64,000 bases of DNA from a virus (lineage: Duplodnaviria > Heunggongvirae > Uroviricota > Caudoviricetes): the IMG/VR virus record IMGVR_UViG_3300005329_000001. One strand, written 5' to 3'. Each line of letters starts with the position of its first letter. Position 1 is the first letter of the stretch. The position numbers and the translations under genes are program-made. The notes under the pieces are model-generated. The model saw nothing but the letters and a program-made list of their open reading frames with translations, was not told the DNA's origin and searched no databases. Of this stretch, positions 32,997-55,057 are shown piece after piece.

Positions 32997-35045
32997 ATGA
33001 GCGACCTCGGTCTCGCTGGCGGCATTGCCAGATTCGATTCGTTTCACGGTCGCCAAGAGGGCGGCGGAGGCGCTCTTCGTTACCCGTCTCCGTTCTTCGA
33101 CATCGGCCACACGTATCTGCCCACCAGCATCAAGCAGATGTTCCGGTGGTGCCGGTACTACTTCCTCACCAACCCGCTGATCAACGCCGTCACTTACAAG
33201 ATGGCGGAGTACCCGATCACGGACATCATCGTCGACGAGGAAGACTCTGAGCAGCGGGCGAAGTGGATCGAGATGATCGAGCACCAGTTCAAGGTGCGTA
33301 CGGTCGAGATCGAAGCCGGCCTGGACTATTACTGCTACGGCATCGCATTCATTTCGCTGCACTTCCCATTCGACAAGTACCTCGTCTGCCCGCACTGCAA
33401 GACGGAGTACAAGGCCAAGGACAAGCGGACCGAGTTCAAGTTCCGCAACCTCAACTACTTCTTGTCCTGCAAGAAGTGCGAGATGGTCGTCCAGGCCAAG
33501 ATCGTCGACAACTACACGAAGAACTATCGGGACATCAAGGTCATCCGGTGGAACCCGGAGTACGTCACCGCTGAGCACAACGACATCACCGGTGAGACGG
33601 CCTACTTCTTCGACATCCCCATGGCGACGAGGAACGACATCCTCATGGGGAAGCGTCACGTAATCGAGTCGATCCCGGACGTCTACATCGAGTCGCTTCG
33701 CTCCAACAAGAGCCTGCGCCTCACCTCGGACAACATGTTCGTGCTGAAGCGACCAACCATCGCTCAGAAGGACATGGGCTGGGGCATGCCCCTCATCCTG
33801 CCTGTCCTCAAGGACACCTTCTACCTGCAGATCTTGCGGAAGGGGCAGGAGGCGATTGCCCAGCAGCACATCGTTCCGCTCCGCATCCTCTTCCCGCAGG
33901 CTGGTGGCGCCGACGCGAGCCCTTACTCGACGACGGACCTCGGCAATTGGCGCAAGAGGATCGAGCAAGAGCTCGCCAAGCAGCGAGTCGACCCGAACTA
34001 CATCCCCATCATGCCGCTACCGGTGGGCAACGAGACGATCGGAGGCGAGGGCAAGGCACTCATGCTTCACCAGGAGATGCGCGCCTGGTCGGAGCAGATC
34101 GTCGCCGGCATGCACGTTCCCATCGAATTCGTCTTCGGCGGCCTGCAGTACTCTGGCTCCAACGTCTCGATGCGCATGCTCGAGAACCAGTTCCTCGGCT
34201 ACCGCACCAACCTCCTCATCATGGTCCGCGACTTCATTCTCGGGAAGATCGCCGACTACATGGAGTGGAACCGCCCGAAGCTGCACTTCAAGCGCTTCAA
34301 GATGGCGGACGATCTGCAGCGTCTCCAGCTCACCTTCCAGATGAACCAGGCGCAGAAGGTCTCGGACACCACGCTCCTCGACGAGGCCGATCTGGACATC
34401 GTTCAGGAAGAGAAGCACAAGAGCGCCGAGATGGCGAAGCAGATGGACAACCAGCGCAAGCAGATGATGGCCTCCGCCGAGCTCCAAGGCGAGACGCTCC
34501 TTGTCCAGACGCGCTACCAGATCCAGGCCCAGAAGCTCATGCAGGCCGCTGGAATGCCTCCGCCAGACCAAGGCGGTGGTGCCCAGAACCAACAGCTTGG
34601 CGACGCCATGAAGCAGTTCGCCGAGGGCCAGCAATTGGGAGGCCCCGGCGGGCCTGGTGGCGGTGGCGACATGCAGCCCAAGGAAGGTGACGACGCCGCC
34701 CCGGGCTTCCCAGAGGGTGTGAAGGCCTACCCGGAGAAGGGCGGGACCATGCCGAACGAGGGCATCCCGATGGAGATGCAGTCGCCGCTCACCCAGGCGG
34801 CTGGCCAAGGTGCTCTATTCAGTCCGCTCTACCTCGCTCGTCGTGCGGCTACGCACTTCGAGAAGATGGATGAGATGACGAAGAACATCGAGCTCATCAA
34901 GATGAAGGGCAAGAACCCGCAACTCTACGGGCTCACCGTTCAGCTCCTCCAAGACGCGAAGGGCTCTCAGACTGATCCGCTTGACCCCGGTCAGTCGCCC
35001 ATGCCAGACATCAAGCCGCCTCGTCGCAAGAACGCTCTCATCTGA
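32997..35045 (+). CDS. Portal protein with inserted Zn ribbon and low-complexity C-terminal extension
   Basis: WCRYYFLTNPLINAV, LDYYCYGIAF, WGMPLILPVLK and IVAGMHVPIEFVFGG match portal helix patterns. CPHC...CKKC insertion. Confidence 0.75.
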   Translation: MSDLGLAGGIARFDSFHGRQEGGGGALRYPSPFFDIGHTYLPTSIKQMFRWCRYYFLTNPLINAVTYKMAEYPITDIIVDEEDSEQRAKWIEMIEHQFKVRTVEIEAGLDYYCYGIAFISLHFPFDKYLVCPHCKTEYKAKDKRTEFKFRNLNYFLSCKKCEMVVQAKIVDNYTKNYRDIKVIRWNPEYVTAEHNDITGETAYFFDIPMATRNDILMGKRHVIESIPDVYIESLRSNKSLRLTSDNMFVLKRPTIAQKDMGWGMPLILPVLKDTFYLQILRKGQEAIAQQHIVPLRILFPQAGGADASPYSTTDLGNWRKRIEQELAKQRVDPNYIPIMPLPVGNETIGGEGKALMLHQEMRAWSEQIVAGMHVPIEFVFGGLQYSGSNVSMRMLENQFLGYRTNLLIMVRDFILGKIADYMEWNRPKLHFKRFKMADDLQRLQLTFQMNQAQKVSDTTLLDEADLDIVQEEKHKSAEMAKQMDNQRKQMMASAELQGETLLVQTRYQIQAQKLMQAAGMPPPDQGGGAQNQQLGDAMKQFAEGQQLGGPGGPGGGGDMQPKEGDDAAPGFPEGVKAYPEKGGTMPNEGIPMEMQSPLTQAAGQGALFSPLYLARRAATHFEKMDEMTKNIELIKMKGKNPQLYGLTVQLLQDAKGSQTDPLDPGQSPMPDIKPPRRKNALI

Positions 35046-35118: not shown

Positions 35119-37854
35119 ATGCAGACGGCAGCAGAGGACAAGAAGGTGGTGCGCCGAAACGCATCACCGAAGAGGATCCGATTCCAGCGGGTCTTCACCA
35201 CCGAGGGCGTTCATCCGTTCAACACCGTCGAGTGGGTCAGGAAAGATGCAGTAATCTACGGCAGCAAGGGGGACGTGAAGTTCCGTCAAGACGGTGTCGA
35301 AGTCCCCGGGTTCTGGAACGACACCACAGTCAACATCGTCGCTGAGAAGTACTTCCGCACCATCAATGGCGTGAAGGAAGTCTCCGCGAAGCAGATGTTC
35401 GATCGCGTCGCCTATTGGATGGCGCGTCAGGCGATCGACCAAGGGATCTTCGAGCCGGGGCATCTTCACACCTACGGCGCCCCTCCGTCGCCGCCCGATA
35501 CGATGATGTCCGTCGACGGCCAGGTGTTCTACGAGGAGCTTCTCTTCATGCTCCTTCATGGCATGTTCGCCTTCAACTCTCCGGTCTGGTTCAATGTCGG
35601 CGCGGTGGAAGTTCCGCAGTGCTCGGCCTGCTTCATCCAGCAGGTCACCGACGACATGGGCGACATCATGGACCTGGCCAAGAAGGAGGCCATGCTCTTC
35701 AAGGGCGGCTCGGGCACGGGCGGTAACCTCTCGCCCATCCGCGGCAGCATGGAGAAGCTGTCGAACGGTGGCACGGCATCTGGCCCGGTCTCGTTCATGA
35801 AGGGCTTCGACGCCTTCGCCGGCGCCATGAAGTCTGGTGGTGGTACTCGACGTGCCGCCAAGATGGTCGTTCTCAACGTTGACCACCCGGACATCGAGGA
35901 GTTCATCACCTGCAAGTCGAACGCGGAGCAGGTGGCTCACGATCTCTACTCGACGGGGAAGTACACCGCCGAGTTCAACGTTCCGGGCAATGTCTACGAG
36001 TACGTTGGCTTCCAGAACGCCAACAACTCGGTTCGTGTGACCGATGAGTTCATGAAGCTCGTCGAGAGCGACGGTGAGTTCTCGACGAAGTTCGTGAGCA
36101 CGGGCAAGCCGCACAAGAAGTACAAGGCCCGTCATCTTTGGAAGGAGATCGCCAAGGCCGCCTGGATGTGCGGCGATCCGGGTCTGCAGTTCGACACGAC
36201 CACGAACAACTGGCACACCAGCCCTGCTTCGGGCCGCATCAACGCCTCGAATCCGTGCTCGGAGTATCTCTACCTCGACAACACGGCCTGCAATCTCGGA
36301 TCACTGAACCTGCGCAAGTTCGTCAAGCTCGACAACACCTTCGACATCGAAGGCTTCGAGCACGCCTGCTCGATCGCCATCACCGCGATGGAGGCGGTCG
36401 TCGACGCCAGTTCCTACCCGTCGCCGGTCATCACGGAGAACAGCCACAGGTACCGTACACTGGGGCTCGGCTACACGAATCTGGGCGATCTTCTTACCGT
36501 GTGGGGTCTTCCGTACGACTCCAATGACGGTCGGAGTGTCGCCGGCGGCATCACTGCCATCATGGGTGGCGCAGCCCAGAGGCAGTCTGCTCTGCTTGCC
36601 GAAGTCCGCGGTCCGTTCGAGGCGTTCGAGGCCAACCGCGAGCCGATGCTCAACGTGGTCAAGATGCACCTCAATGCGGCCAAACGGATTCCGACGCCGA
36701 TGGCGAAGCAGTATCACGCCATCATCGATCGGGCGCCCGAAGTCTGGACGGAGGCGCTGCAGGCCGGAAAGAAGTTCGGCTACCGCAACGGCCAGGTCAC
36801 AGTGCTCGCCCCGACTGGAACCATCAGCTTCCTCATGTGCGCCGATACTACCGGCGTCGAGCCCAACACGGCTATCGTCCGGTACAAGAAGCTTGTCGGT
36901 GGTGGCATGGAGCGGCTGGCGACTCCCAGTGTCGAGCTCGCTCTCAAAAACCTCGGGTACTCGCCGGAAGTCATCGACGGGATCCTCGAGTACGTCGCTG
37001 AGAACGAGAAGCTTCAGGGCGCGCCGGAGTTCGACTACGAGAAGCACGGTGGCGTCTTCCCGGAAGCTATCGGACCGAACGCCCTGCGTCCAGAAGCTCA
37101 CATCCTCATGATGGCTGCGGTCCAGCCCTTCCTCTCGGGCGGCATCTCGAAGACCGTCAACATGCCAGAGAACTGCACGGTGGAGGACATCGAGAAGATC
37201 TACATGCTGTCCTGGAAGTCTGGTCTGAAGTGCGTGGCCATCTACCGGGACAAGTGCAAGCTCTCTCAGCCCATCTCCACCGAGAACAACACGCTCGAGG
37301 GCCGAGTCAAGTCGCTGGCGTGGGGTGAACGCCGTCGCCTACCGGACGAGCGCGACGCCAAGACGGCGAAAGTCAGCATCGGCGGCACGGAGGTGTACAT
37401 CACTCCGGGCTTCTTCGGGGATGGCTCTCTGGGCGAGATCTTCGTCCGCGTCTCGAAGCAGGGCTCCACGCTGAACGGCATCATGGATGCGTGGGCGACC
37501 GCCTTCAGCATCGGCCTCCAGCACGGCGTTCCGCTGGAGACGTTCATCGAGAAGTTCAGCGACCAGGAGTTCGAACCCAAGGGCTGGACGAGTCACCCGA
37601 TCATCCGCCGCGCTCGGTCCATCCCGGACTTCCTGGCGCAGTGGCTCGCTCTCAACTTCGCACCAAATGCGCAGCATCTTCTCCGACTGCGTGAGGCGCC
37701 GGCTGACGTCAAGCTGCTCACGCCGAAGGAAGAGGAGGCGAAGGCAGAGAAGGCGCCGTCTGGTCCTCCCTGCACTCGCTGCGGCAGTCTCACGAAGCGG
37801 GCAGGCTCGTGCCACCTCTGCCCGAACTGCGGTACCTCGACCGGCTGCGGATAG
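35119..37854 (+). CDS. nrdJ: Class II (adenosylcobalamin-dependent) ribonucleotide reductase
   Basis: FNSP, CSACF, GGSGTG, NASNPCSE, ACNLGSLNL, APTGTIS and GGISKTVN. C-terminal TSCPD-like domain and CxxC...CxxC...C tail. Confidence 0.95.
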   Translation: MQTAAEDKKVVRRNASPKRIRFQRVFTTEGVHPFNTVEWVRKDAVIYGSKGDVKFRQDGVEVPGFWNDTTVNIVAEKYFRTINGVKEVSAKQMFDRVAYWMARQAIDQGIFEPGHLHTYGAPPSPPDTMMSVDGQVFYEELLFMLLHGMFAFNSPVWFNVGAVEVPQCSACFIQQVTDDMGDIMDLAKKEAMLFKGGSGTGGNLSPIRGSMEKLSNGGTASGPVSFMKGFDAFAGAMKSGGGTRRAAKMVVLNVDHPDIEEFITCKSNAEQVAHDLYSTGKYTAEFNVPGNVYEYVGFQNANNSVRVTDEFMKLVESDGEFSTKFVSTGKPHKKYKARHLWKEIAKAAWMCGDPGLQFDTTTNNWHTSPASGRINASNPCSEYLYLDNTACNLGSLNLRKFVKLDNTFDIEGFEHACSIAITAMEAVVDASSYPSPVITENSHRYRTLGLGYTNLGDLLTVWGLPYDSNDGRSVAGGITAIMGGAAQRQSALLAEVRGPFEAFEANREPMLNVVKMHLNAAKRIPTPMAKQYHAIIDRAPEVWTEALQAGKKFGYRNGQVTVLAPTGTISFLMCADTTGVEPNTAIVRYKKLVGGGMERLATPSVELALKNLGYSPEVIDGILEYVAENEKLQGAPEFDYEKHGGVFPEAIGPNALRPEAHILMMAAVQPFLSGGISKTVNMPENCTVEDIEKIYMLSWKSGLKCVAIYRDKCKLSQPISTENNTLEGRVKSLAWGERRRLPDERDAKTAKVSIGGTEVYITPGFFGDGSLGEIFVRVSKQGSTLNGIMDAWATAFSIGLQHGVPLETFIEKFSDQEFEPKGWTSHPIIRRARSIPDFLAQWLALNFAPNAQHLLRLREAPADVKLLTPKEEEAKAEKAPSGPPCTRCGSLTKRAGSCHLCPNCGTSTGCG

Positions 37855-38745: not shown

Positions 38746-38748
38746 GAG

Positions 38749-38835: not shown

Positions 38836-38836
38836 G

Positions 38837-38962
38837 TCACTCGTCGCCTTCCGGTGTGATTACCCCCGAGATTAGGTCGTCGACAGCCTCCTCGTAATCG
38901 TTGTTCTCGTCCTCCGGTTGGTTCGAGTCGTTGTCACCTGGTTCGAAACTCTCTCGGCCCAT
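38837..38962 (-). CDS. 41-aa highly acidic peptide (not in ORF track)
   Basis: MGRESFEPGDNDSNQPEDENNDYEEAVDDLISGVITPEGDE; SD GAGGGAAG. First gene after the 39.0 kb motif. Confidence 0.55.
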   Translation of the reverse strand: MGRESFEPGDNDSNQPEDENNDYEEAVDDLISGVITPEGDE

Positions 38963-39002
38963 GGCTTCCCTCTCTGCGAAAATAAAGCCTGCCTACGAAA
39001 CT

Positions 39003-39030
39003 CTTATCTCCGGCAATCTCTAGGTTTTAT
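39003..39030 (-). promoter_or_regulatory. Candidate phage promoter ATAAAA-N16-GATAAG
   Basis: Intergenic, about 40 nt upstream of the acidic peptide gene. Confidence 0.55.
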
Positions 39031-39059
39031 TTGACGTCGGATCGTCTTCTGCCTACGCT
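39031..39059 (+). promoter_or_regulatory. Sigma70-like promoter TTGACG-N17-TACGCT upstream of the RNAP gene
   Basis: Near-consensus -35, exact 17-nt spacer and a TAnnnT -10. Confidence 0.6.
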
Positions 39060-39117
39060 GGAGGCACTTGGTCGGCCCGGAGATTGCCGTCAGGCAGAGG
39101 GCTGCAAGGAGATTATC

Positions 39118-42100
39118 GTGGCCGGTACCCCAGCAGAGACCTGGAAGTCCCTCCAAGAGCGTGTCGAGTCAGCAGTGAAGAGCTACTTCCCCTTCGAAGG
39201 AAGAGCGAAGAAGTTGGTTCTTCACAATCTCTCCTTCGATGATAGTGGCGCACCGAGAGATGACATCCGCTCTCAGGAGCAAGCGAAGGATCAGAAGAAG
39301 ACCTGGGGCGCGAACGTCTTCGCCGACGTGAGCCTGATCGACAAAGCCACGGGACATGAGCTCGATCGAACCAAGATCAAGGTCATGACTCTCCCCAAGC
39401 CCACCAACCGCTACAGCTACATCGTCGACGGATCCGAGTGGCAGGTGGATAGCCTCTGGCGCCTGCGTTCGGGCGTCTACGCCCACATCAAGCAGAACGG
39501 CGAAATGGAGACCGAGTTCAACCTCGCCAAGCCGTTCGCGGGTAAGCCTCGTATCAAGATCCCGTTCGATCCAGAGTCTCGCAAGTTTCAGTTCCAGTGG
39601 GGCACCTATCACCCTCCGCTCTACTCCGTTCTCAAGGTTCTCGGCGTTCAAGACGAGGATATGAAGAAGGCGTGGGGCGAGGACATCTACAAGGCCAATG
39701 TCCCGAAGCACCCGGAGAAGGACATTGAAGAGCTCTACGCGAAGATCACCAAGAACTCGAAGCAGCAACTGCAAGGCCTAACCTACGACCAGAAGGCCTC
39801 TGCCGTTGTTGCCGAGTTCCACAAGACGGGTTTGTTGCCAGAGATGACGAAGCTCGTCTTCGGCAAGCCGTTCGACCACGTCAACGGGGAAGCTTTGCTG
39901 CTGGGCTCGCAGCGGATTCTTGGAGTGACCAAGGGCGATATCCCACAGGACGATCGCAACTCACTCGTCTTCAAGACACTGCACGGAACGGACGACTTCC
40001 TGCACGAGCAGCTCACCAAGTCCAAGATGAAGCGGACCCTTGCTGGAAAAGTCGGCAACAACATCGACCGGCAGGATAAGGTTCGCGACATCATCTCCGG
40101 CGACCTCTTCAATCGCCCCATCAAGGAGTTCTTCACGAGCTCCATGCTCTCGAAGAACCCGGAGCAGGTGAACCCGCTCGAGATGATCTCGAATCATCGA
40201 GCGACGACGATCATGGCCGAGGAGGGCGGTATCAAGAAGGAGCAGTCGGTTACGCCCGACATGAAGCTCATCAACCCCTCGCACTTCGGCTATCTCGATC
40301 CGATCCACACGCCGGAGTCGGAGCGCACCGGTATCACTCTGCACTTGCCCATCGGCGTCAAGAAGAGGGGCAACGACCCCATCATGCAGGTCTATGATCT
40401 GAAGGCGAAGCAGTTCGCCAAGGTCACGCCGGCCGAGCTACACCGAGAGAACGTGCTGCTGCCAGATCAGGTCGTCATCAGGGACGGGCGCCCGCATCCG
40501 ATTGCGGACCTCGTGAAGATGAAGGACCCGATAACACACGAGATGCTGGAGAAGCCTTTCTCCGAGGCTCGCTACCTCGTTGTTCAGCCCTCGCAGCTCT
40601 ACGATGAGGCGACCAACCTCATCCCGTTCCTGCAGAACAACCAGGGCAACCGCACGATGACCGCGTCCCGCCAGGGCACGCAGGCCGTCTCTCTGCACAA
40701 TCGCGAGCAGCCTCTCGTTCAGGTTTTGGCAGGCGGGTCTCAGACCTGGGAGAAGCTCACCGGTCTCGACTGGTCCCACAATGCTCATCACGACGGCAAG
40801 GTGGTGGAGATCAAGACCAGCAAGGAGAACGGCCACGCTGAGGCTATCGTCATTCAGGACGCGGCCGGCAAGCGACACGAGGAGCAGATCTACAACCACT
40901 TCCCGCTCAACGACTCGAAGACCTTCATCCACTCGACGCCGCTTGTGAAGGTCGGCGATTCGGTGAAGAAGGGGCAGACCCTCGCCGACACCAACTTCAC
41001 ACGGCAGGGCTCTCTGTCCCTTGGAACGAACCTTCGCGTCGCGTATTTACCGTACAAGGGGTACAACTTCGAGGACGGCATCGTCATCTCCGACTCAGCA
41101 GCAAAGAAGCTGACGTCGGAGCACTTGCACCGTCGGACGCTCGAGACAGATCCCGAGAGGGACGAGATCTCGAAGTCGAGGTTCATCGCCTTCGCCAGCA
41201 CGATGTCAAAGAAGCTGACGAAGGACCAGATGTCCAAGATCGGGACGGACGGTCTGATTCGAGTCGGTCAGCGGGTCGAGCCGGGAGACATCCTCGTTGC
41301 AGCAGTGGGCAAGAAGGACTACGCCGGCGAGACTGGTCGGTTGATGAGTCGTCTGTCGAAGAAGGCCTTCAATCTCCAAGACCGAAGCGTGGTCTGGGAT
41401 TCCGACCACCCGGGTGAGGTGGTGAAGGTCGTCAAGCTCCCGAACAACAAGGGAGCCGTCGTTCACGTCAAGACGCTCGAGTCCGCCGAGGTCGGTGACA
41501 AGATCGTCGGCCGACACGGCAACAAGGCCATCATCACCCGCATCCTGCCCGACCACGAGATGCCTCGCATCGGTGGCGCAGATGGCCAGCACGTCCAGGT
41601 CCTCATGAACCCATCCGGCGTCCCGACCCGCATCAACCTCGGTCAGATGCTCGAGACAGCCGCCTCGAAGGTCGCCGAGAAGACGGGCAAGCCCTATGTC
41701 GTCACCAACTTCGCCGGGCCGCACGTCGACTACACCAGCAAGGTGAAAGAAGACTTGGCGAAGAATGGCATCAGCGATCAAGAAACGCTCTTCGATCCGA
41801 CCAACGGCAAGAAGCTCGGAGACGTACTGACGGGCAATCAGTACATCTTCAAGCTCAAGCACCAGGTCGAGAAGAAGCTCGCCGTCCGAAGCGGAGGTCG
41901 ACAGGGCGGTGGTTCCTACACCGTCGACCACGCTCCCAAGGGCACAGGTGCGGAGCACCCCGGCCAGGGCCTGGGGCAGCTCGAGTTCTACGCTCTGCTC
42001 GCTCACGGAGCGCGCCACAACCTTCGCGAGATGGCCACCTACAAGGCCGACCAGCACCTCGGGGACAATCTCGACGACATGAATCACACCGACTTCTGGG

Positions 42101-45100
42101 ATCGCGTCCGCACGGGCCAGCCGCTGCCGGCTCCTCGCCCGACGTTCGCGTACAAGAAGTTCGAGAACCTGCTCACCGGCCTCGGCGTCAACATCCAGAA
42201 GCAAGGCAACGAGCTCCAGCTCATGCCGTTGACTGACAAGGGCGTGCTCGCTCTCTCGCACGGCGAGATCAAAGACGCTGGTCGCATGCTCCGTGGCAAA
42301 GATGCCAAGGAGCTGGAGAAGGGCCTCTTCGACCCGAAGATCACCGGCGGCCTGCCGGATGACAAGGGCAAGGGACTCTTCTGGTCTCACATCAAGATGG
42401 CCGAGCCGGTTCCCAATCCGGTGTTCGTCGGCTCGAGCAAGTCGCAGCTCGGCCCGGCCGTCATCCTATCCGGTCTTCGGTATGAAGACTTCGAAGCGGT
42501 TGCGAAGGGCAAGAAGGCCCTGCCCAACGGCGAGACAGGTGGTATCGCAATCAACAATCTTCTCAAGAAGATCGACGTCAAGGCCGAGCTGAAGAAGACG
42601 CTCGCTGAGCTCCCGAAGCTGAAGAAGGACGCGCTCAACAAGGCCAACAAGAAGGCGCGCTACCTCATCGCTCTCGACAAGCTCAACATGAAGCCGCACG
42701 AAGCGTACATGATGAACTACCTGCCGGTGCTGCCGCCGGCGTTCCGGCCCATTGTTCCGATGCCGGATGGTTCACTGCGCTACGACGACATCAACCAGTA
42801 CTACCACGCCATCGGTCTCCTCAACGATCGTCTGAAGAACCCGGTCAAGGAGCTCGGCGGTGCCTCGGAGAGGAACGTCCGCGAGCAGCTCTACGACGCC
42901 ATGAGGGCCTACGCTGGCCTCGGTGGGCGTCCGGTCTACGAGTCGAACCGCCCGATGAAGGGCATCCTCGACGTCGTTGCTGGCGATCAGCCGAAGCAAG
43001 GCTACTTCCAGAAGCGGCTCATGAAGCGCCGGCAGGAGCTCTCCATGCGCTCCACCATCATCCCGGAGCCGGCCATGCACCTCGACTACGTGGGCCTACC
43101 GAAGGAAGCGGCGATGGAGCTCTACAAGCCTTTCGTCGTGCGAGAGCTGGGTCAGGTCGGCCTCAACCCGGTCAATGCGCTGAAGGCGGTGAAGGAGAAT
43201 AGGGACATCGCCTGGAAGGCGCTCGAGAAGGCGATGGACAAGCGCCCGGTCCTCCTCAAGCGAGACCCGGCTCTGCACAAGTTCTCGATCATGGCCTTCA
43301 AGCCGAAGATGGTCGAGGGCAAGGCCATCCAGATCCACCCGCTGGTCACCGCTGGCTACAACGCTGACTTCGACGGCGACACCATGTCCGTCTTCGTCCC
43401 GCTCACGGACGAGGCAGTCAAGGAGTCCCACAAGATGTTCCCGTCGAACAACCTCTTCAGCTCGACCAGCGGCGACATCATGTACCAGCCGACGCAGGAG
43501 TCACTGCTCGGTCTTCACCTTCTGACGAAGTGGGGCAAGGAGACTGGTAAGACATTTCCCAACTTCCTCGAAGCACAGAAGGCGAAGGACAGAGGTGCTC
43601 TTGGCATGAACGACGTCTTCACCATCGGTGGCAAGAAGACGACGCTCGGCCGCATGACAATCAATAGCTACTTCCCAGACGGCTTCAAGGCCAACGAGGA
43701 ACTTCTGCACGACTCGAAGTTCACGCTCAAGAAGAAGAACGTGAAGCAGCTCCTGGGTAACCTGGCCCGCCAGGACCCGAAGAGCTTCGCCCTCACCGTC
43801 GACAAGCTGAAGGACTTGGGTAACAACTACTCCTACGAAGCGGGGTTCTCCTTCGGTCTGAAGGACCTTGATGTTCAGAAGGGGCTGCGTGATCACATCC
43901 TCCACCCCTACGATGTCGAGGCGGGAAAGATCAGGTCCAGCAAGCTCTCGAAGGAAGAGAAGGACGCCAAGCTGGTGAAGATCTACTCGATGGCGACCGA
44001 TGAGCTCGAGAAGGAGCTCCTGCCGCACTTCGAGAAGACGGACAACAAGATCTACACGATGGTGTACTCCGGTGCTCGCGGCTCGACGCCGCAGTTCCGC
44101 CAGATCACCATGGCTCCGATGCTCATGAAGGACGGCGCTGGCGGCACCATCCCCACTCCGGTCAAGAAGAGCTATGCGGAGGGTCTCGACGTCGGTGACT
44201 ACTGGACGTCTCTCCACGGCGCCCGCATGGGTACCCTGCAGAAGGTCGAAGGTACCTCTGAGCCTGGAGCTCTCACCAAAGACGTTGCTAACGTCATGAT
44301 GCCGACGCTGATCGTCTCGAACGATTGCGGTACCAAGAACGGCATCACGATGAATGTGGCCGACGTGGAGATCCAGGATCGAGTTCTGGCCAAGGAAGCG
44401 AAAGTGGGTAAGCACACGCTCGCTCCTGGCACGATCATCACTCCAGAGGTGACGGCAACTCTGCAGAAGCACGGCGTCGACAAGATCATCGTGCGGTCTC
44501 CTCTGAAGTGCGCCCACGGGCAGGGCCTGTGCGCCAAGTGCTACGGACTCAGTGAGAACGGACACTTCCACGAAGTCGGCACCAACATCGGCGTGATCGC
44601 CGGACACGCTCTTGGTGAGCCAGCGACGCAGCTCGCCATGGACTCGTTCCACACCGGTGGCGTCGCGGCGTCTCGAGGCGCCGGTGCGGTCGACAAGTTC
44701 ACTCGACTGAACCAGCTTCTCAATGTCCCCAAGATCCTGTCGCACTCTGCTACCCTATCCACCATGGAAGGGACCGTGTCTCGGATCGAGCACGACAAGG
44801 CGACGAACGGTCACTACATCCACATCGGCGGGGAACGGCACTACGTCCCGGCCGTCAACAAGGTCACCGTCGCTGTGGGCGACAAAGTCTTCCCGGGCCA
44901 CGCGCTGTCGGACGGCCCCATCAATCCCCGCGAGCTCTTGCCGCTGACCGACATCCACAATGTGCAGAACTACGTCACGAACAGCCTACACAACGATGTG
45001 TACAAGGACGAGCACGTCAAGCGCCGCAACATCGAGACAGTAGTGCGCTCTCTGACCAACCTCGCTCGCGTCGAGGATCCGGGCGATTCGGCACACCTGC

Positions 45101-45387
45101 ACGGAGACCTCGTCCTTCGCACTGTGGTGGATGAGCACAACCGCAGCCTGAAGCCCGATGAGAAGCCGATCATCGCAAAGCCAGTTATTCGCTCGGCGGA
45201 GCAGGTCGCCCTCGACCAGCACGAAGACTGGATGGCGCGTCTCAACTTCGAGCGTTTGCGGCAGACCATTCTCGAGGGTGCGTCTCGAGGCTGGAAGAGC
45301 AACATCCACGGGCCCAACCCCGTTCCCGCCTATGTCTTCGGTGCGGAGTTCGGCAAGGGCACCAAAGAGAATCCGCACCACTACTAA
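39118..45387 (+). CDS. Single-chain DNA-directed RNA polymerase (fused beta-beta')
   Basis: Beta motifs: SHFGYLDPIHTPE, GYNFEDG, GDKIVGRHGNK, MNPSGVPTRINLGQ, GQLEFYALLAHGA. Beta' motifs: LPVLPPAFRP, LLKRDPALH, YNADFDGDTM (43357-43386), GEPATQLAMDSFHTGG. SD AAGGAG before GTG 39118. Confidence 0.97.
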   Translation: MAGTPAETWKSLQERVESAVKSYFPFEGRAKKLVLHNLSFDDSGAPRDDIRSQEQAKDQKKTWGANVFADVSLIDKATGHELDRTKIKVMTLPKPTNRYSYIVDGSEWQVDSLWRLRSGVYAHIKQNGEMETEFNLAKPFAGKPRIKIPFDPESRKFQFQWGTYHPPLYSVLKVLGVQDEDMKKAWGEDIYKANVPKHPEKDIEELYAKITKNSKQQLQGLTYDQKASAVVAEFHKTGLLPEMTKLVFGKPFDHVNGEALLLGSQRILGVTKGDIPQDDRNSLVFKTLHGTDDFLHEQLTKSKMKRTLAGKVGNNIDRQDKVRDIISGDLFNRPIKEFFTSSMLSKNPEQVNPLEMISNHRATTIMAEEGGIKKEQSVTPDMKLINPSHFGYLDPIHTPESERTGITLHLPIGVKKRGNDPIMQVYDLKAKQFAKVTPAELHRENVLLPDQVVIRDGRPHPIADLVKMKDPITHEMLEKPFSEARYLVVQPSQLYDEATNLIPFLQNNQGNRTMTASRQGTQAVSLHNREQPLVQVLAGGSQTWEKLTGLDWSHNAHHDGKVVEIKTSKENGHAEAIVIQDAAGKRHEEQIYNHFPLNDSKTFIHSTPLVKVGDSVKKGQTLADTNFTRQGSLSLGTNLRVAYLPYKGYNFEDGIVISDSAAKKLTSEHLHRRTLETDPERDEISKSRFIAFASTMSKKLTKDQMSKIGTDGLIRVGQRVEPGDILVAAVGKKDYAGETGRLMSRLSKKAFNLQDRSVVWDSDHPGEVVKVVKLPNNKGAVVHVKTLESAEVGDKIVGRHGNKAIITRILPDHEMPRIGGADGQHVQVLMNPSGVPTRINLGQMLETAASKVAEKTGKPYVVTNFAGPHVDYTSKVKEDLAKNGISDQETLFDPTNGKKLGDVLTGNQYIFKLKHQVEKKLAVRSGGRQGGGSYTVDHAPKGTGAEHPGQGLGQLEFYALLAHGARHNLREMATYKADQHLGDNLDDMNHTDFWDRVRTGQPLPAPRPTFAYKKFENLLTGLGVNIQKQGNELQLMPLTDKGVLALSHGEIKDAGRMLRGKDAKELEKGLFDPKITGGLPDDKGKGLFWSHIKMAEPVPNPVFVGSSKSQLGPAVILSGLRYEDFEAVAKGKKALPNGETGGIAINNLLKKIDVKAELKKTLAELPKLKKDALNKANKKARYLIALDKLNMKPHEAYMMNYLPVLPPAFRPIVPMPDGSLRYDDINQYYHAIGLLNDRLKNPVKELGGASERNVREQLYDAMRAYAGLGGRPVYESNRPMKGILDVVAGDQPKQGYFQKRLMKRRQELSMRSTIIPEPAMHLDYVGLPKEAAMELYKPFVVRELGQVGLNPVNALKAVKENRDIAWKALEKAMDKRPVLLKRDPALHKFSIMAFKPKMVEGKAIQIHPLVTAGYNADFDGDTMSVFVPLTDEAVKESHKMFPSNNLFSSTSGDIMYQPTQESLLGLHLLTKWGKETGKTFPNFLEAQKAKDRGALGMNDVFTIGGKKTTLGRMTINSYFPDGFKANEELLHDSKFTLKKKNVKQLLGNLARQDPKSFALTVDKLKDLGNNYSYEAGFSFGLKDLDVQKGLRDHILHPYDVEAGKIRSSKLSKEEKDAKLVKIYSMATDELEKELLPHFEKTDNKIYTMVYSGARGSTPQFRQITMAPMLMKDGAGGTIPTPVKKSYAEGLDVGDYWTSLHGARMGTLQKVEGTSEPGALTKDVANVMMPTLIVSNDCGTKNGITMNVADVEIQDRVLAKEAKVGKHTLAPGTIITPEVTATLQKHGVDKIIVRSPLKCAHGQGLCAKCYGLSENGHFHEVGTNIGVIAGHALGEPATQLAMDSFHTGGVAASRGAGAVDKFTRLNQLLNVPKILSHSATLSTMEGTVSRIEHDKATNGHYIHIGGERHYVPAVNKVTVAVGDKVFPGHALSDGPINPRELLPLTDIHNVQNYVTNSLHNDVYKDEHVKRRNIETVVRSLTNLARVEDPGDSAHLHGDLVLRTVVDEHNRSLKPDEKPIIAKPVIRSAEQVALDQHEDWMARLNFERLRQTILEGASRGWKSNIHGPNPVPAYVFGAEFGKGTKENPHHY

Positions 45388-45389
45388 TC

Positions 45390-46538
45390 ATGAGCAGACG
45401 CGCTGTAGACGCCTTCCCCAAGAAGCGCTCGTCCTCCACGGCGACGACGGATCTTCGCGACGTTTCCGTTTATCGGGGCCGTGTCGTCAACGTCAACATT
45501 CGGGACTACACGGTGGACACCCGAATGGAGGCTGCGCCCTATACGGTGAAGTTCGACATCCCCTTCATCTCTCCCTACGTGAATCAGAACCAGGGAGAGG
45601 GCATCAACTGGATGCCGGAAGTCGGGTCGGTTTGCTGGGTCTGTGAGCCTTCAGAAGACGGACGAGAGAGCTTCGTTCTTGGCTGGTCTGTGGTGGATGA
45701 GGGCGGCAGCTATCGTGGTGGGCGCTCTCTTCTCAATCCTGGAGACATCGAGCTCAAGACAAGAGACCTGAACTTCGTCACTCTCCGTCGAGGAGGGATC
45801 GTTCAGATCGGCTCTACTCCCATCTGCCAGCGCATCTTCCTACCCATTCGAAACGTGATGCAGGACTTCGCCGAGAACTACGAGCTCCACACCCCGGCTG
45901 GTGACCTCACATGGCAGGTGCAGAGGAAGGATGAAGATTCCGACGGGCACCAGAAGTGTCTGTACCAAATCGCCGCCAAAGAGTTCGCGGACGACTCCAA
46001 TGACAAGACGGTCGCCCTCCTCAAAATCGGTTCCCATGGCGACGGTGACAAGACTATCCTGACGCTGCAAACCCGCGATAAAGGTGGAGGAGACGTCAAG
46101 ATAGGGCTCACCTTCGACAAGGACGGCAACGTCAACTGGACCATGGAAAAGAACTACTCCTTGGTGCTCAACTCAGGTGACCTGACGCTCCAAGCGAAGC
46201 AGGGCAAAGTCTCGGTCTCGTCGAACAAGGCGATGTCGCTCGATAGCCAAGACTCGATGGATCTCCACAGCACAAAGGCGATGGGAATCAAGACGGACGA
46301 CGCGATGACGATCCAGGCCATGCAGAAGCTGGTGCTCAAGGGCACAGCGGGGATCGATATCGACTTGGCGCAATGGCCCGTCTTGCGCAACTCTCCTGAC
46401 TTCATCCAGTTCATCGCTGCAGTCGCTGCTCAGCTTGGAACTCCAGTGACGACGCCCTTCGGCACTCTCGTCGCTGCGAACCCTGGCATCCTCTCGATGA
46501 TTCCCAAAAACCACCAGAACCCGAAGGTGAAGGTCTAA
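45390..46538 (+). CDS. Baseplate central spike (gp5/gpV/VgrG-like) protein
   Basis: N-terminal OB-fold pattern (YRGRVVNV...WMPEVGSVCWV) and C-terminal 8-residue beta-helix periodicity (SMDLHSTK/AMGIKTDD/AMTIQAMQ). Confidence 0.65.
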   Translation: MSRRAVDAFPKKRSSSTATTDLRDVSVYRGRVVNVNIRDYTVDTRMEAAPYTVKFDIPFISPYVNQNQGEGINWMPEVGSVCWVCEPSEDGRESFVLGWSVVDEGGSYRGGRSLLNPGDIELKTRDLNFVTLRRGGIVQIGSTPICQRIFLPIRNVMQDFAENYELHTPAGDLTWQVQRKDEDSDGHQKCLYQIAAKEFADDSNDKTVALLKIGSHGDGDKTILTLQTRDKGGGDVKIGLTFDKDGNVNWTMEKNYSLVLNSGDLTLQAKQGKVSVSSNKAMSLDSQDSMDLHSTKAMGIKTDDAMTIQAMQKLVLKGTAGIDIDLAQWPVLRNSPDFIQFIAAVAAQLGTPVTTPFGTLVAANPGILSMIPKNHQNPKVKV

Positions 46539-46539: not shown

Positions 46540-48558
46540 ATGAATCTCTTCCTCGATCAGGACTTCAAGCCGACCTTCGAGAAGGTGGCCATGCCGGTGA
46601 AGCTCGGTGACAACACCGAGAACTGGCAGCGGGAGATCGCATCGGAGATCTACAAGCAGCTCCCCTACCTGGCGGACTACTCGGTCAACGTGATGCTCGA
46701 TCGCGTGGATGCCCAGCGGGGCTACGCCTTCGGAGCTGCCGAAGTCACCAATCAGACGGATTCTCCTCTGCCTGATCAGCCGGAGAACTCGGTCAAGATC
46801 CCCATCATCGTCAAGGACCGGCTCATGCAGCCACTGGACGTGATGCTCGATGGCAACGAGGCTCTTCCTCTCAACGAACGCCGCCTGCGGGAGAAGCTCT
46901 TCCGCACGGCCGCCGTCGAGACGTCAACCCGCAAGCCCACCGATCAGGGCATGGTCGACCAGCTCTATCCGCCGATGCGTACCAATTACGGCTACGGCAA
47001 TGCCGTGGCGACTGGCGTTGGTGTTGGCGGCTTCGGCAAGCAGGCGTCAGCGAAGAAGCCCCTGTGCGAGGTGATTGCCTCGACCATCTCTGATCAACAG
47101 TACGAAGCCTTCCTCGAGAAGATCGCCTCCGACGAGGAGACCCGTCTTCTCTTCCTGAAGAACGCGTCGGTTCGGAAGATCTCGAACCGGATGGCGATGG
47201 TTCAGCACATGAGCGTCGAGAAGACGGCTTCGGCGCTGATCCACAGCATCAAGCCGACGGTCGTGCAGATCACCAAGCTCGCCTCGGGCAACTTCAAGGT
47301 GAAGTGGGCCAACGCCGGCGCCTTCGCTCCGCAGGAGATGCAGGCCTCGCCGGACCAGGCTGCCGCCATGGCTGGGCAGGACATGTCGAAAATGCAGCCA
47401 GGTCAGACCATGACGGTCACCACCCAGCGTGCTCAGAAGCAGGGCCTGGACGAGCCGGATGGGGCGCTCATCACTGAGTTCGGTGATTACGCTGTGAAGA
47501 ACGCGGACAGTGGCGAGACTCTGATGGGCACCGTGCTGCCTGTGGTCGACTTCCAGATGCAGCCACTTGAGTTCTTCGTCTTCACTGATGGCCACGGCGC
47601 CTATGGTGCTCAGGACGAGATCATCGGTGTGCGTCAGGAGGGACCTGGCGGCATGGCTCTCGAGGCGGCTCAAGGACAGCAGCCGCAGGGCGACGGCATT
47701 TTCGTCTACCACCCACAGGGTGGTGCCAAGCCATTCTCGACTCTTCCTCTCACCATCGAATCGACCTCGCAGGGCCCGGACGGGATGCTGCAGTACATGG
47801 TCAGCGACGTCTTCGGGGCGCAGATGACCCTCGTCCCCACTCCTGGTATCTCTGCATTCGAGCCGATGGGAGAGGGCGATATGTTCGCCATCCCGGACGA
47901 CATGCAGTGGGTGCCCCTGAGCGGAGAGCCGGTTCACCTGGCCAAGGGTGACACCCCGGACTCGGCGGCCGATGCCAAGAGCTTGCCGAACGAAGTGGCC
48001 GTCAAGTCGACGGGCCCAGGAGAGACGTCTCTCGAGGGCATGCCGGTCATGAAGGTTGCCCGAGACAACCGCTGGTTCTTGAAGACGGCGGAGGCAACGT
48101 TCCTGCTCTGCGCCATGGGCCTTACCCAGGACGAAGCGCAGGAGGTTATCAAGGAAGCGGAGCGTCGCCCCAATAAGCTGGTGAAGCTTGCAGGCCTGAA
48201 CCCCATCGTGCCGCTCGGCGACATCCACGCGAATGCAGAGAAGAAGGCTGCGGCGCTGCTCGAGCAATTCGATTACAGCTTCTGGCGCCGGGACTTGGTG
48301 AAGGAGGCGGCTGCGCTCGAGGACACCGAGACGGCCGACAAGATTCTCGCCATGAACTTCATCAACCCGGAGAACATCTCCATCTTCGCCAGCTACCTCC
48401 CCGACCTCGACACGACATCGACCAAGCTCGCCGAGATGCTGATCGCCTCACGTCTCGGCCTCAACCAGGTCCCGACTGGTGCCGCCGAGCGTGCCATGAA
48501 GAACATGGAAGAGGTGATCGGCGGCCTTCGCTCGCTCCAGCAGAAGGAGCTCGTCTAA
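46540..48558 (+). CDS. Large putative head/core protein with many K-x-A motifs
   Basis: FEKVAM, GKQASA, EKIASD, EKTASA, TKLASG, VKLAGL, EKKAAA and VKEAAA. Confidence 0.6.
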   Translation: MNLFLDQDFKPTFEKVAMPVKLGDNTENWQREIASEIYKQLPYLADYSVNVMLDRVDAQRGYAFGAAEVTNQTDSPLPDQPENSVKIPIIVKDRLMQPLDVMLDGNEALPLNERRLREKLFRTAAVETSTRKPTDQGMVDQLYPPMRTNYGYGNAVATGVGVGGFGKQASAKKPLCEVIASTISDQQYEAFLEKIASDEETRLLFLKNASVRKISNRMAMVQHMSVEKTASALIHSIKPTVVQITKLASGNFKVKWANAGAFAPQEMQASPDQAAAMAGQDMSKMQPGQTMTVTTQRAQKQGLDEPDGALITEFGDYAVKNADSGETLMGTVLPVVDFQMQPLEFFVFTDGHGAYGAQDEIIGVRQEGPGGMALEAAQGQQPQGDGIFVYHPQGGAKPFSTLPLTIESTSQGPDGMLQYMVSDVFGAQMTLVPTPGISAFEPMGEGDMFAIPDDMQWVPLSGEPVHLAKGDTPDSAADAKSLPNEVAVKSTGPGETSLEGMPVMKVARDNRWFLKTAEATFLLCAMGLTQDEAQEVIKEAERRPNKLVKLAGLNPIVPLGDIHANAEKKAAALLEQFDYSFWRRDLVKEAAALEDTETADKILAMNFINPENISIFASYLPDLDTTSTKLAEMLIASRLGLNQVPTGAAERAMKNMEEVIGGLRSLQQKELV

Positions 48559-49517: not shown

Positions 49518-49980
49518 CTTCATCAAGACTAACCCACGTGCCTTCCTCACCGGCGTTGGGGCAGTTGCTGGCGGTGCTGGCGGAGCCGTCCGTGGATTGA
49601 CGATGAAGTCCTGGCATGACCAGTGGCGAGATGTAACGCACCACTATGATGCCGAGCAGAGAAAGAAAAACGCGTGGAAGATGGGGCTCGCTGGCGGAAT
49701 CGCTGGCGGTCTCGTCGGGTACACAACTCCCGTTCATACAGTGCCGGCCTCAGCACTCCCCAAAGCAGTCCCGTCGGCCTTCAAAGGCGTAAAGTCGCAG
49801 AAGGACGTGAAGAAGCTCGTCCGCGAGTTCTCGCTCAAGCACCATCCAGATCGCGGCGGTGATGCCAAGAAGTATCGAGAGTTCATCGACGCCTACAACG
49901 CGTTCAAGAAGCATCCCAAGTTCCCGAAGACGGCCATGGTGGCCTTTGTGGACGAGATGCTCCACATCCTCAATCGATGA
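49498..49980 (+). CDS. Membrane-anchored J-domain (DnaJ-type) protein
   Basis: Two Gly-zipper segments, then VKKLVREFSLKHHPDRGGD...YREFIDAYNAF (HPD). C-terminal KTA-MVAFVDEMLHIL. Start may be 49504. Confidence 0.85.
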   Translation: MAMGLGDFIKTNPRAFLTGVGAVAGGAGGAVRGLTMKSWHDQWRDVTHHYDAEQRKKNAWKMGLAGGIAGGLVGYTTPVHTVPASALPKAVPSAFKGVKSQKDVKKLVREFSLKHHPDRGGDAKKYREFIDAYNAFKKHPKFPKTAMVAFVDEMLHILNR

Positions 49981-51434
49981 GTCGTCTCGCTACCAACCTC
50001 GGGAAGATCGCGGGCGTGGCAGGGCTACAGCCCCATCAGCAGCGTGTTGTCGATCGTATCCAGCAGCCTGACCAGCCGGGCTTGGTGGTGGCGCACGGTC
50101 TCGGTTCTGGAAAGACGAGAACTGCGATCGAGGCTCAGAAGGCTCTCAAGATGCCGTCGGACGTCATCGTTCCGGCAGCACTCCAGGCGAATTACCGCAA
50201 GGAGCAGAAGAAGTGGTTGGGCGGAGCCAAGCAGAAGGCTCATGTCCAGTCGATGCAGAACATCACGAGGAAGCGTCAGGCTCCGACGCAGCCCCTGATG
50301 ATCGTCGACGAGGCTCACCGTGCTCGTGAGCCTCAGACGCAGACCTACAAGACGCTGGCGAAGAACGAGGCCGAGAAGCGCCTGCTTCTGACCGGCAGTC
50401 CATTCTACAACCGCCCGTCTGACATTGCGCCACTCGTAGACCTCGCCTCTGGAGCGCCGTTGCTTCCGACGGACCCGGAGCGGTTCAATCAGAGGTTCAT
50501 TCGTCAGAAGAAGATTAGCCCTGGCATCATCAATCGACTCCGCGGCCTCAAGCCGGGTGTCGTTGAAGAGCTGAACCCCAAGCGCCAGGAAGAGCTTCAA
50601 GGCATCTTCGACAAGTGGGTCGACTATCACCCGTCTGCGAAGGAAGACTTCCCCGAGGTCAATCGTGAGGACGTCAAGGTGCCGATGGACCCGAAGCAGC
50701 TCGAGGTCTACGACACCATCCTGAAGAAGGCGCCACCTTGGGTGTCGGCCAAGATCCGCTCTCGTCTGCCTCCCAGCAAGCGGGAATCCCAGCAGCTCAA
50801 CGCCTTCTTGGGGGCCAGTCGGCAAATCGCCAACTCCACTGCTCCCTTTCAGGAGGACGTGAAGAAGGTCTATGAGCCCAAGCTGGACGAAGCCTTCTCT
50901 CGGTTGCAGCAAGAGCTTGCCGCGAACGAGAGGGCAAAGGCTGTCGTCTACTCCAACTACCTCGGCGCAGGCATCAATCCCTACGCCCAGAGGCTTCAAG
51001 AAGCTGGCATCCCCTACGGCGAGTTCACCGGTGAGATGCCGAAGTCGAAGAGGGACGAGCTCGTCAGGCAGTACAACGAGAACAAAATTCGCGCCCTCTT
51101 GCTCTCTTCGGCCGGTGGAGAAGGTCTCGATCTGCAGGGCACTCGACTCATCCAGATGCTAGAGCCTCACTGGAATGATGAGAAGTTGAAGCAGGTTGAG
51201 GGTCGTGGCATCCGTTACAAGAGCCACGCGATGCTTCCCCCAGAAGAGCGGAATGTGAAGGTCCAGCGGTTCTTGGCGACTCGCCGTCCAACCGGCGTTC
51301 TCGAGAAGCTGCGCCTCAAGAAGCCAGGTGGATCGGTCGACGAGTACCTTGCCGCCAGGGCCCAGGAAAAGGAAAACTTGATCCAACAATTCCGGGCCCT
51401 ACTTGAACAACAGCAGCAGCCTGCAGCACAATAG
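49977..51434 (+). CDS. SNF2-related SF2 helicase/ATPase resembling poxvirus D6/D11 (NPH-I)
   Basis: AHGLGSGKT, IVDEAH, LLTGSP, VVYSNY, GGEGLDL, EPHWN and QVEGRGIRYKSH. N-terminal GKIAG. Confidence 0.8.
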   Translation: MSRLATNLGKIAGVAGLQPHQQRVVDRIQQPDQPGLVVAHGLGSGKTRTAIEAQKALKMPSDVIVPAALQANYRKEQKKWLGGAKQKAHVQSMQNITRKRQAPTQPLMIVDEAHRAREPQTQTYKTLAKNEAEKRLLLTGSPFYNRPSDIAPLVDLASGAPLLPTDPERFNQRFIRQKKISPGIINRLRGLKPGVVEELNPKRQEELQGIFDKWVDYHPSAKEDFPEVNREDVKVPMDPKQLEVYDTILKKAPPWVSAKIRSRLPPSKRESQQLNAFLGASRQIANSTAPFQEDVKKVYEPKLDEAFSRLQQELAANERAKAVVYSNYLGAGINPYAQRLQEAGIPYGEFTGEMPKSKRDELVRQYNENKIRALLLSSAGGEGLDLQGTRLIQMLEPHWNDEKLKQVEGRGIRYKSHAMLPPEERNVKVQRFLATRRPTGVLEKLRLKKPGGSVDEYLAARAQEKENLIQQFRALLEQQQQPAAQ

Positions 51435-54622: not shown

Positions 54623-55057
54623 GTGAACAAGATCCGCTACCCACGAAGAACTAAGACTTGTCCACGGTGCAAGAAAGACAAGCCGGCTACGGCTAAGTTC
54701 TTCTGTCCAGACAAGCGAGGCTATATTTGCTGGTGCAGGCGCTGCTCGGCCGACCGAGCGACTGAGTGGGGAAAGACCAATCATCGTCGACAAACGGATA
54801 CTCGATTCAAGAGACGCTACGGCCTCTCCATAGAAGAGTTTGATGCACTAGTCCTACAGCAGAACGGCAAATGCGCCATCTGCGGAGAGGCCCCAAAGGC
54901 CGTGAAGAGCAAACTTCAGGGATTCAACGTGGACCACGACCACAAGACGAAGAAAGTCCGGGGGCTGCTTTGCTTCGGGTGCAACACTGGAATCGGCTGC
55001 CTGAGGGATAACCCTTCCCGGCTGCGGTCTGCTGCCGACTACCTCGAGAGGATGTAA
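54623..55057 (+). CDS. Endonuclease VII-type HNH endonuclease with N-terminal Zn finger
   Basis: CPRCK...CRRC and YGLSIEEF...QNGKCAICG...VDHDH.T.KVRGLLCFGCNTGIG. Confidence 0.9.
   Translation: MNKIRYPRRTKTCPRCKKDKPATAKFFCPDKRGYICWCRRCSADRATEWGKTNHRRQTDTRFKRRYGLSIEEFDALVLQQNGKCAICGEAPKAVKSKLQGFNVDHDHKTKKVRGLLCFGCNTGIGCLRDNPSRLRSAADYLERM

Follow-up and report, generated by a model that had tools for sequence, protein, structure and literature searches.

A predicted single-chain beta-beta' RNA polymerase encoded among the virion genes of a large tailed phage

Fusions of the beta (RpoB) and beta' (RpoC) subunits of cellular RNA polymerase (RNAP) are known from Helicobacter and Wolbachia, in which the C-terminus of beta is joined to the N-terminus of beta', the same order as in the phage gene described below; these cellular fusions are full-size, keep the zinc ribbon of beta' and assemble with the alpha dimer (alpha2) and omega. 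Among jumbo phages, the multisubunit-type RNAPs of the phiKZ and AR9 type consist of four to five highly diverged polypeptides, are present in two sets per genome and are not accompanied by a sigma70-family factor. They function without alpha or omega, and the phiKZ/AR9 virion RNAP is packaged and injected and renders infection rifampicin-resistant (PMC13282480). An SNF2 helicase is often associated with jumbo-phage RNAPs (PMC7824862), and both a 2021 comparative study (PMC7824862) and a 2026 review of jumbo phages (PMC13282480) describe these RNAPs only as split and sigma-less. A further group of phage enzymes, comprising the N4 virion RNAP, gp66 of crAss-like phages and the tape-measure-fused RNAP of P23-45 (bioRxiv 10.1101/2022.12.01.518664), takes the form of a huge single polypeptide encoded among virion genes and is delivered with the DNA for early transcription. 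The subject of this work is a gene at positions 39118-45387 of a 64,000-nucleotide (nt) stretch, hereafter the window, of the tailed-phage record IMGVR_UViG_3300005329_000001 in IMG/VR, which corresponds to positions 53814-117813 of a soil phage genome that is complete at 210,330 bp and bounded by direct terminal repeats. The gene (the query) likewise lies among virion genes and is predicted to encode a bacterial-type beta-beta' RNAP as one polypeptide. As in phiKZ and AR9, the enzyme is of the multisubunit type and the phage encodes neither alpha nor omega; it differs from them in being a single chain present in one set, with ~30% identity to bacterial enzymes and a sigma70-family partner. 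It is also unlike the N4 enzyme, which is T7-like, and unlike crAss gp66 and the P23-45 enzyme, two-barrel polymerases too diverged for alignment with bacterial beta/beta' and without a sigma70-family factor. A fused phage beta-beta' enzyme of the query type is not described in the literature surveyed, which included the 2026 review (PMC13282480) and covered subscription journals thinly.

The gene is one open reading frame (ORF) running from a GTG at 39118 to a TAA at 45385-45387, with an AAGGAG at 39106-39111, 6 nt upstream of the start, and it is the only RNAP locus in the 210,330-bp genome. Pfam domains fall along the protein in cellular order, with Rpb2_3, Rpb2_6 (E = 2e-61) and part of Rpb2_7 followed by Rpb1_1 to Rpb1_5, and the best phmmer matches in the PDB are bacterial beta' chains (E down to 3e-127). 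In order to place individual elements, the query was aligned, together with its divergent relatives P0079 and L036 and the enzyme of phage Arash, against beta and beta' of Bacillus, Burkholderia, Pelotomaculum and Streptomyces. The beta active-site loop GDK...GRHGNKG is present in this alignment, and the following features were assigned.

39118..45387, + strand: single-chain beta-beta' RNAP gene, 2,089 amino acids (aa), protein P0001 (ORF, Pfam, phmmer)
39118..42198, + strand: beta module, aa 1-1027 (Pfam; alignment with indel list)
40138..40230, + strand: equivalent of the rifampicin-binding region, aa 341-371 (alignment)
41341..41373, + strand: flap-tip helix equivalent, aa ~742-752, equal in length to the bacterial one (alignment)
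42199..42258, + strand: junction of ~20 residues from the last conserved beta block to the first beta' motif, G-E-I/V-K (alignment)
42259..45384, + strand: beta' module, aa 1048-2089 (Pfam, phmmer, alignment)
42349..42390, + strand: site of the deleted beta' zinc ribbon, CxC...CxxC (alignment)
42796..42903, + strand: clamp helices, aa 1227-1262, predicted docking surface for region 2 of the phage sigma (alignment; complex model)
43360..43380, + strand: catalytic NADFDGD, aa 1415-1421, invariant in 26 family members (alignment)
44194..44292, + strand: bridge helix region, aa ~1693-1725 (alignment)
44326..44541, + strand: second zinc site, Cys1737/1798/1805/1808, invariant in the family (alignment)
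44578..44667, + strand: trigger loop, aa ~1821-1850, without SI3 (alignment)

The initial annotation, made from the letters of the window, had read the gene as a single-polypeptide bacterial-type enzyme of about 2090 aa, with beta and then beta' motifs in cellular order, a canonical NADFDGD and recognisable flap, clamp helices, bridge helix and trigger loop. The ORF, the Pfam and PDB matches and the alignment with bacterial beta/beta' bear out this description. The beta module is colinear with bacterial RpoB from its first residues to the last conserved block. Relative to the bacterial enzymes, betaSI1, betaSI2, the proteobacterial beta insertion, beta'SI3 and part of the beta lobe are deleted; two short beta' segments are also gone, and the bacterial C-terminal tail has been replaced. 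Retained are the flap-tip helix, the clamp helices, the lid/rudder region, NADFDGD, the bridge helix, the trigger loop and the cysteines of the second zinc site, most of these elements being invariant across a 26-member alignment of the family (members 47-100% identical). The flap tip is, in bacteria, the docking site for sigma region 4. The zinc ribbon of beta' is deleted alike in the query, P0079, L036 and Arash, and its loss is therefore ancestral to the family, given that it extends to divergent relatives. Within the equivalent of the rifampicin-binding region, the substituted positions correspond to the classic resistance positions of Escherichia coli RpoB. The conserved N-terminus of the family begins at residue ~5, and neither a recognisable propeptide nor an N-terminal extension is present. 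In the trigger loop, an arginine is replaced by aspartate (MRTFH to MDSFH, window 44638-44652, aa 1841-1845); the change is invariant in the subclade of the query, the arginine is retained in the more distant L036, and Arash differs again.

On homology and phylogeny, the query enzyme is placed in a large, phage-only RNAP family of tailed phages with genomes of ~150-220 kb. A search of 5.8 billion proteins returned, among the matches listed, 120 clusters, all of them fused and 47-100% identical, many of which come from 180-220-kb contigs and some of which carry intein domains. A profile-guided scan of IMG/VR identified at least 515 stretches with a family RNAP. At the viral loci that were fetched, the RNAP is nearly always one ORF of 2,020-2,200 aa, or longer with intein-sized inserts, and only one subclade, which includes Arash and Vibrio phage D69, has the chain split once, inside beta' (query residue ~1505). 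Megablast of the locus against isolated phages gave no match. In bacteria, rpoB and rpoC were separate at 80 of 80 loci, with identities to the query of at most 34%. Phylogenies were inferred with FastTree (115 concatenated sequences, 2,019 columns) and with IQ-TREE under LG+C20+F+G4 (44 sequences, 1,875 columns, fast alignment). In both trees the fused and split phage enzymes fall on one side (support 100 and 99) and the bacteria on the opposite side (100). The bacterial sample comprised the 30 most similar lineages and the trees are unrooted, so that no claim is made on donor or age. As to placement inside a bacterial phylum, the check that had been proposed for a host-derived gene, the enzyme branches within no bacterial phylum in either tree for these 30 lineages.

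The statement in the initial annotation that fused beta-beta' RNAPs had been reported for the mReC lineage proved to be wrong. The mReC, or multisubunit-RNAP-encoding Caudovirales, were described by Weinheimer & Aylward in 2020 (PMC7481178), and in each of the mReC entries compared from Supplementary Data 2 of that paper beta (~1,000-1,560 aa) and beta' (~890-1,390 aa) are different proteins; the sheet of non-mReC hits likewise holds two-protein contigs only, and the word 'fused' refers there to crAssphage alone. The query family shares with mReC its occurrence in metagenomic tailed phages, some of them jumbo, and an RNAP that is alignable to COG0085/COG0086 and lies outside the cellular clades. 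It departs from mReC in having one chain instead of two genes (900-1,560 aa each) and in its terminase large subunit (TerL), which is of the PF05876 gpA type and not PF03237 as in mReC. The mReC capsid protein is of the T4 gp23 type (PF07068) (PMC7481178), and the PF07068 profile gave no match to the major capsid protein (MCP) of the query phage. Since published mReC combine a two-gene RNAP with a gp23-type MCP and a PF03237 TerL, and the query combines a single chain with a gpA-type TerL and no gp23 signal, the query family is judged from these comparisons to be distinct from published mReC. Family RNAPs are missing from the mReC study and from the 2026 jumbo-phage review, and they would escape a pipeline that demands two proteins. 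Six IMG/VR contigs (among them L088 and L090-L093) do have mReC-like gene sizes, with beta' (~910-930 aa) followed by beta (~1,020-1,070 aa). L088 and L090-L093 form a separate clade on a long branch beside the bacteria in both trees, and their likeness to mReC is one of gene sizes only.

The initial annotation had also noted that no alpha, omega or sigma gene lies in the window. This is correct for the window, and for alpha and omega the absence extends to the whole genome: profiles PF01000, PF01193, PF03118 and PF01192 (N-terminal and C-terminal domains of alpha, and omega) detected nothing at E<=1 in the complete 210-kb genome, with control genomes positive. It does not extend to sigma, for which a gene was found upstream of the window.

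G000:C1:32668-33378 (coordinates of the complete genome), 21 kb before the window: sigma70-family gene, 236 aa (Pfam, RpoS alignment, Arash Gp10)

Region 3 of this protein scores 29.6 bits (Pfam cutoff 25.3), and regions 2 and 4 score below their cutoffs but stand in the correct order. Its residues 28-234 can be aligned with RpoS (E = 7e-8), and Arash Gp10 is a homologue (E = 2e-20). A homologue is encoded by 14 of 16 family genomes; among the 13 with a completeness of at least 90%, 12 have one. With a conserved sigma70-family factor encoded by the phage, the RNAP is very probably sigma-dependent, and the earlier label of a minimal RNAP needs to be qualified: the enzyme is compact, with ribbon and insertions deleted, but it comes with a conserved phage-encoded sigma factor. 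Docking of the sigma with the beta' clamp fragment yielded a score of 0.61, the best of 3 controls reaching 0.00, with runs agreeing in at least 38% of contacts and a predicted local distance difference test (pLDDT) score of at least 70 for the partner. Among solved complexes 58 of 80 attain that mark, as do 2 of 110 mismatched pairs. In the model, sigma region 2 contacts the clamp helices (query residues 1227-1261); this is the textbook interface, and the pass is for that reason to be read as likeness to solved holoenzymes and not as proof of binding.

The position of the RNAP gene was assessed by comparing 77 family loci, counting genes on the same strand as the RNAP. The virion genes that flank it in the window are the following.

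32997..35045, + strand: portal protein homologue, 682 aa (31% identity to Arash Gp204, E 4e-79)
45390..46538, + strand: central tail-spike protein, 382 aa, P0129 (AlphaFold2 fold; Foldseek; synteny)
55057..56898, + strand: TerL of the lambda gpA type (PF05876), 613 aa (Pfam; Arash homology)
60044..62449, + strand: head protein, 801 aa, homologue of the structural protein Gp222 of Arash (protease-like N-terminal part and InPase, PF18823)

A portal gene lies upstream of the RNAP, ~1.3 kb away, in 56 of the 77 loci, the 382-aa spike gene follows directly 3' in 42 (median gap 4 nt) and TerL is conserved in 37, so that the gene order portal-RNAP-spike-TerL is conserved across the ~77 related loci. 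The synteny of portal, spike, TerL and head-protease genes is common to the query phage and Arash and is kept in 33-56 of the 77 loci. Comparison with Arash located the MCP gene 2.5 kb past the window. At the query locus, the stop codon of the RNAP gene is separated by 2 nt from the ATG of the spike gene at 45390, as had been noted earlier, and the downstream protein does fold as a central spike in the model. This AlphaFold2 model, built from a 25-sequence alignment (pLDDT 72.9), combines an OB-fold with a beta-helical spike, and its top ~36 Foldseek matches in the PDB are all membrane-piercing spikes (P2 gpV, phi92 gp138, the R2 pyocin spike, VgrG) with probability 1.00. Since the model is of a monomer, the corresponding TM-scores stay low, at 0.2-0.3 by query. 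The 382-aa protein is thus predicted to be a central spike of the gpV/gp138/VgrG (gpV/gp5/VgrG) type. With a portal homologue on one side and a protein modelled as a spike on the other, the RNAP gene is placed between portal and central spike in a conserved late-gene arrangement. The virion-structure operon of the initial annotation therefore stands as regards the portal, spike, TerL and head genes, but the same block also holds a class II ribonucleotide reductase (RNR), a C39 peptidase, a J-domain-like protein and an SNF2 helicase.

Cultured members of the family allow this arrangement to be compared with virion proteomics. The RNAPs of Arash (Gp206 + Gp216) and of Vibrio phages D69, D148 and D181 fall in the same clade as the query in both trees and share its beta-to-beta' junction, the zinc-ribbon loss and the portal-RNAP synteny; these phages also carry a homologous sigma (Gp10), SNF2 helicase (Gp217), TerL, MCP and head protein. 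They differ in that the chain is split inside beta' (query residue ~1505), with other genes between the two parts, whereas the query is unsplit, and Arash has the motif AADYDGD in place of NADFDGD. The SNF2 helicase gene adjoins beta' in Arash. The papers on these phages annotate ordinary 'beta' and 'beta'' subunits, with no mention of a fusion (PMC10585845). In sucrose-gradient virions of Arash, Gp206 (beta and the N-terminal part of beta') led all proteins with 3,516 spectra; Gp216 yielded 1,210, the helicase Gp217 1,148 and the sigma Gp10 467 at 100% coverage (PMC10585845). Arash also has a second sigma, Gp196. Spectra per residue computed from Table 2 of that paper amount to 2.0-2.4 for the RNAP pieces, the sigma and the helicase versus 1.5 for the portal. 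By analogy with Arash, packaging of the RNAP in virions is likely across the family; it is rated no higher because the authors caution about carry-over and 116 proteins were detected.

Candidate promoters were sought in the same genome. GATAAG-type words are enriched in its intergenic DNA: [T/G]G-N-GATAAG has 29 copies, of which 14 fall in intergenic DNA as crudely defined, versus 2.4 expected, and most sites lie 5-40 nt upstream of a ribosome-binding site and ATG. The form KGNGATAAGA has 21 copies, 17 of them on one strand, versus 2 for a reversed control; most precede the ribosome-binding site and ATG of small genes, at a distance of 5-40 nt, and the sites cluster at 3-21 kb and 137-173 kb of G000:C1. 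Some relatives show a moderate enrichment of the motif, and its exact form is strong only in the query genome and a few relatives. It can be likened to an extended -10 element whose hexamer begins and ends with G; a candidate site of this type reads GGAGATAAGA. One copy lies in the divergent region ahead of the RNAP gene.

39003..39011, - strand: GGAGATAAG, one copy of the promoter-like motif, in the 155-nt divergent region, pointing away from the RNAP gene

A stricter motif, CC[GC]G(N)GATAAG, showed no enrichment, its 6 matches equalling the shuffled maximum of 6, and gave way to the k-mer-derived KGNGATAAG. TTAGC[TC] upstream of GATAAG was considered as a -35 element and rejected, its spacing varying from 7 to 28 nt, and is read instead as an upstream terminator tail. 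A consensus scan of 37800-39200 found neither a sigma70-type promoter nor a terminator.

Taken jointly, these data lead us to favour, with some confidence, a single-chain core in which covalent fusion replaces alpha-mediated assembly and which, with a phage sigma, is made late, packaged and injected for host-independent early transcription. The RNAP gene would yield the catalytic core as one polypeptide, with beta joined by ~20 residues to a ribbon-less beta', and the fusion would take the place of the alpha-dimer assembly platform. The phage sigma would dock on the retained clamp helices and flap tip. Core and sigma would be produced late, loaded into the particle and injected with the DNA, late synthesis, packaging and injection being the most likely course because the gene sits among late virion genes (portal, spike). 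The injected holoenzyme would then start early-gene transcription independently of the host, in a probably rifampicin-insensitive manner and possibly from GATAAG-type sites. Several points weigh against this reading. The query phage is known from its genome sequence alone, and the Arash enzyme, from which packaging is extrapolated, is only ~30% identical to it. The Arash preparation was purified by sucrose gradient only, ligases, kinases and reductases number among its 116 'virion' proteins, and the authors concede that abundant proteins may have been carried over (PMC10585845). The genome has one RNAP and one sigma, which makes it a question what transcribes the late genes, the RNAP gene among them. 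Host alpha or omega could still bind the phage core. The trigger-loop change from arginine to aspartate is unusual and may bear on catalysis. That the phage holoenzyme reads GATAAG sites is a conjecture, and a hexamer pair before the RNAP gene, TTGACG-N17-TACGCT, is not endorsed as a promoter, as the consensus scan of 37800-39200 was negative.

Some of these points are accommodated by an enzyme that is not a virion component but a transcriptase for middle or late genes, acting after host RNAP has read the early ones, with its place among structural genes and the detection in Arash particles reflecting co-expression and carry-over. The evident non-structural enzymes in the Arash preparation, for which its authors raise carry-over (PMC10585845), the lack of a recognisable propeptide or N-terminal extension and the presence of an RNR, a C39 peptidase and a J-domain protein in the same plus-strand block all fit this explanation. 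We nevertheless hold it to be unlikely, if a serious competitor, given that the portal-RNAP-spike order with its ~4-nt gap is kept in dozens of divergent loci, that the RNAP pieces, sigma and helicase exceed the portal in spectra per residue in the Arash table, and that a sole, late-expressed RNAP matches the virion-RNAP logic of N4 and phiKZ. A hybrid enzyme, in which the fused core still draws on host alpha2 (and omega) for its assembly or its regulation, would be in keeping with beta and beta' modules colinear with their bacterial counterparts except for the listed deletions, and with the cellular fusions of Helicobacter and Wolbachia, which still use alpha. It appears improbable when set against a phage genome without alpha or omega genes, the replaced C-terminal tail of beta' and the activity of phiKZ/AR9-type RNAPs without either subunit (PMC13282480); moreover, the enzyme, if packaged and injected, must act before meeting host subunits. 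Recent capture of a host rpoB-rpoC pair, or bacterial DNA mis-binned as viral, has in its favour a general likeness to bacterial RNAP only. It is refuted, and we give it practically no weight, by a best cellular identity of 34%, a clade that both trees keep apart from each of the 30 bacterial lineages sampled, flanking phage portal, spike, TerL and MCP genes, and a genome record that is complete (210,330 bp) and ends in direct terminal repeats.

If the favoured arrangement of a virion-loaded, single-chain core with a phage sigma holds, its consequences reach beyond this locus. Bacterial RNAP is thought to need alpha2 for the assembly of beta and beta', and a natural single-chain core working with a sigma only would provide a direct test of that need. 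Such an enzyme would be a compact, alignable and probably rifampicin-insensitive system in which to study promoter recognition and the structure of the holoenzyme, drawn from a family that is abundant in metagenomes and has cultured members, and a packaged holoenzyme would represent a new solution to starting infection without the host polymerase. More tentatively, and with doubt prevailing, the family may be the simplest sigma-dependent machine of the cellular type known: a two-protein holoenzyme (single-chain core and one sigma70-family factor) of hundreds of jumbo phages, with fusion substituting for alpha2, ribbon and omega dispensable, loaded in the virion, injected and reading GATAAG promoters that resemble extended -10 elements, so that infection would begin without recourse to host RNAP.

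Besides the virion genes, the neighbourhood of the RNAP holds three further assigned or conserved genes.

35119..37854, + strand: class II (B12-type) RNR between portal and RNAP (3 of 77 loci)
46540..48558, + strand: conserved 672-aa protein with no assigned function (48 of 77 family loci)
49977..51434, + strand: SNF2-family helicase (37.5% identity to the virion-detected Gp217 of Arash)

The RNR, being present in only 3 of the 77 loci, is best explained by its distribution as a recent, lineage-specific insertion in the head module. A search of the ESM Atlas with the 672-aa protein did not yield a usable match, and PHROGs and Pfam scans left most flanking proteins without a family. A 295-aa gene is conserved on the same strand in 33 of 77 loci. 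The SNF2 helicase is patchy, occurring in 6 of 13 near-complete family genomes, and was rejected on that account as an obligatory or core partner of the RNAP. Among the conserved virion genes, window positions 48684-49980 encode a cysteine peptidase of the C39 family, found in 3 loci, and a small J-domain-like protein, found in 1, both thus rare in relatives. A small cassette of minus-strand genes (window 38500-38962) separates the RNR from the RNAP and lies beside the 155-nt divergent control region; homologues of this cassette were not found in the 77 related loci.

Generic repeat finding in the genome returned chance families only. A second intergenic motif, TTTTAGCTAAGAA, occurs directly after GC-rich hairpins, for example at G000:C1 147776, 162638, 176432, 194132 and 204342, and looks like a conserved terminator tail.

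Relatives of the query RNAP carry intein-sized inserts of 300-515 aa with LAGLIDADG, Hom_end or intein Pfam domains (L074:9971-20758, L066, L075, L081, L089, L007, L033 and others). The insertion sites coincide with catalytic hot spots, lying after NADFDGD (query residue ~1421), at GRHGNK (~797-807), at ~400 and ~977, at the cysteines of the second zinc site (~1807) and in the trigger loop (~1841-1846), and the 3,596-aa RNAP gene of one relative contains four such inserts. In the sister contigs L052:10463-15928 and L079:10112-16018 (GC 35-37%), the RNAP frame is broken only by in-frame TGA codons, two in each, which suggests that TGA is recoded (code 4 or 25) in this sublineage. A single in-frame TGA also occurs in the RNAP frame of a contig of 53% GC (L031:12065-12067).

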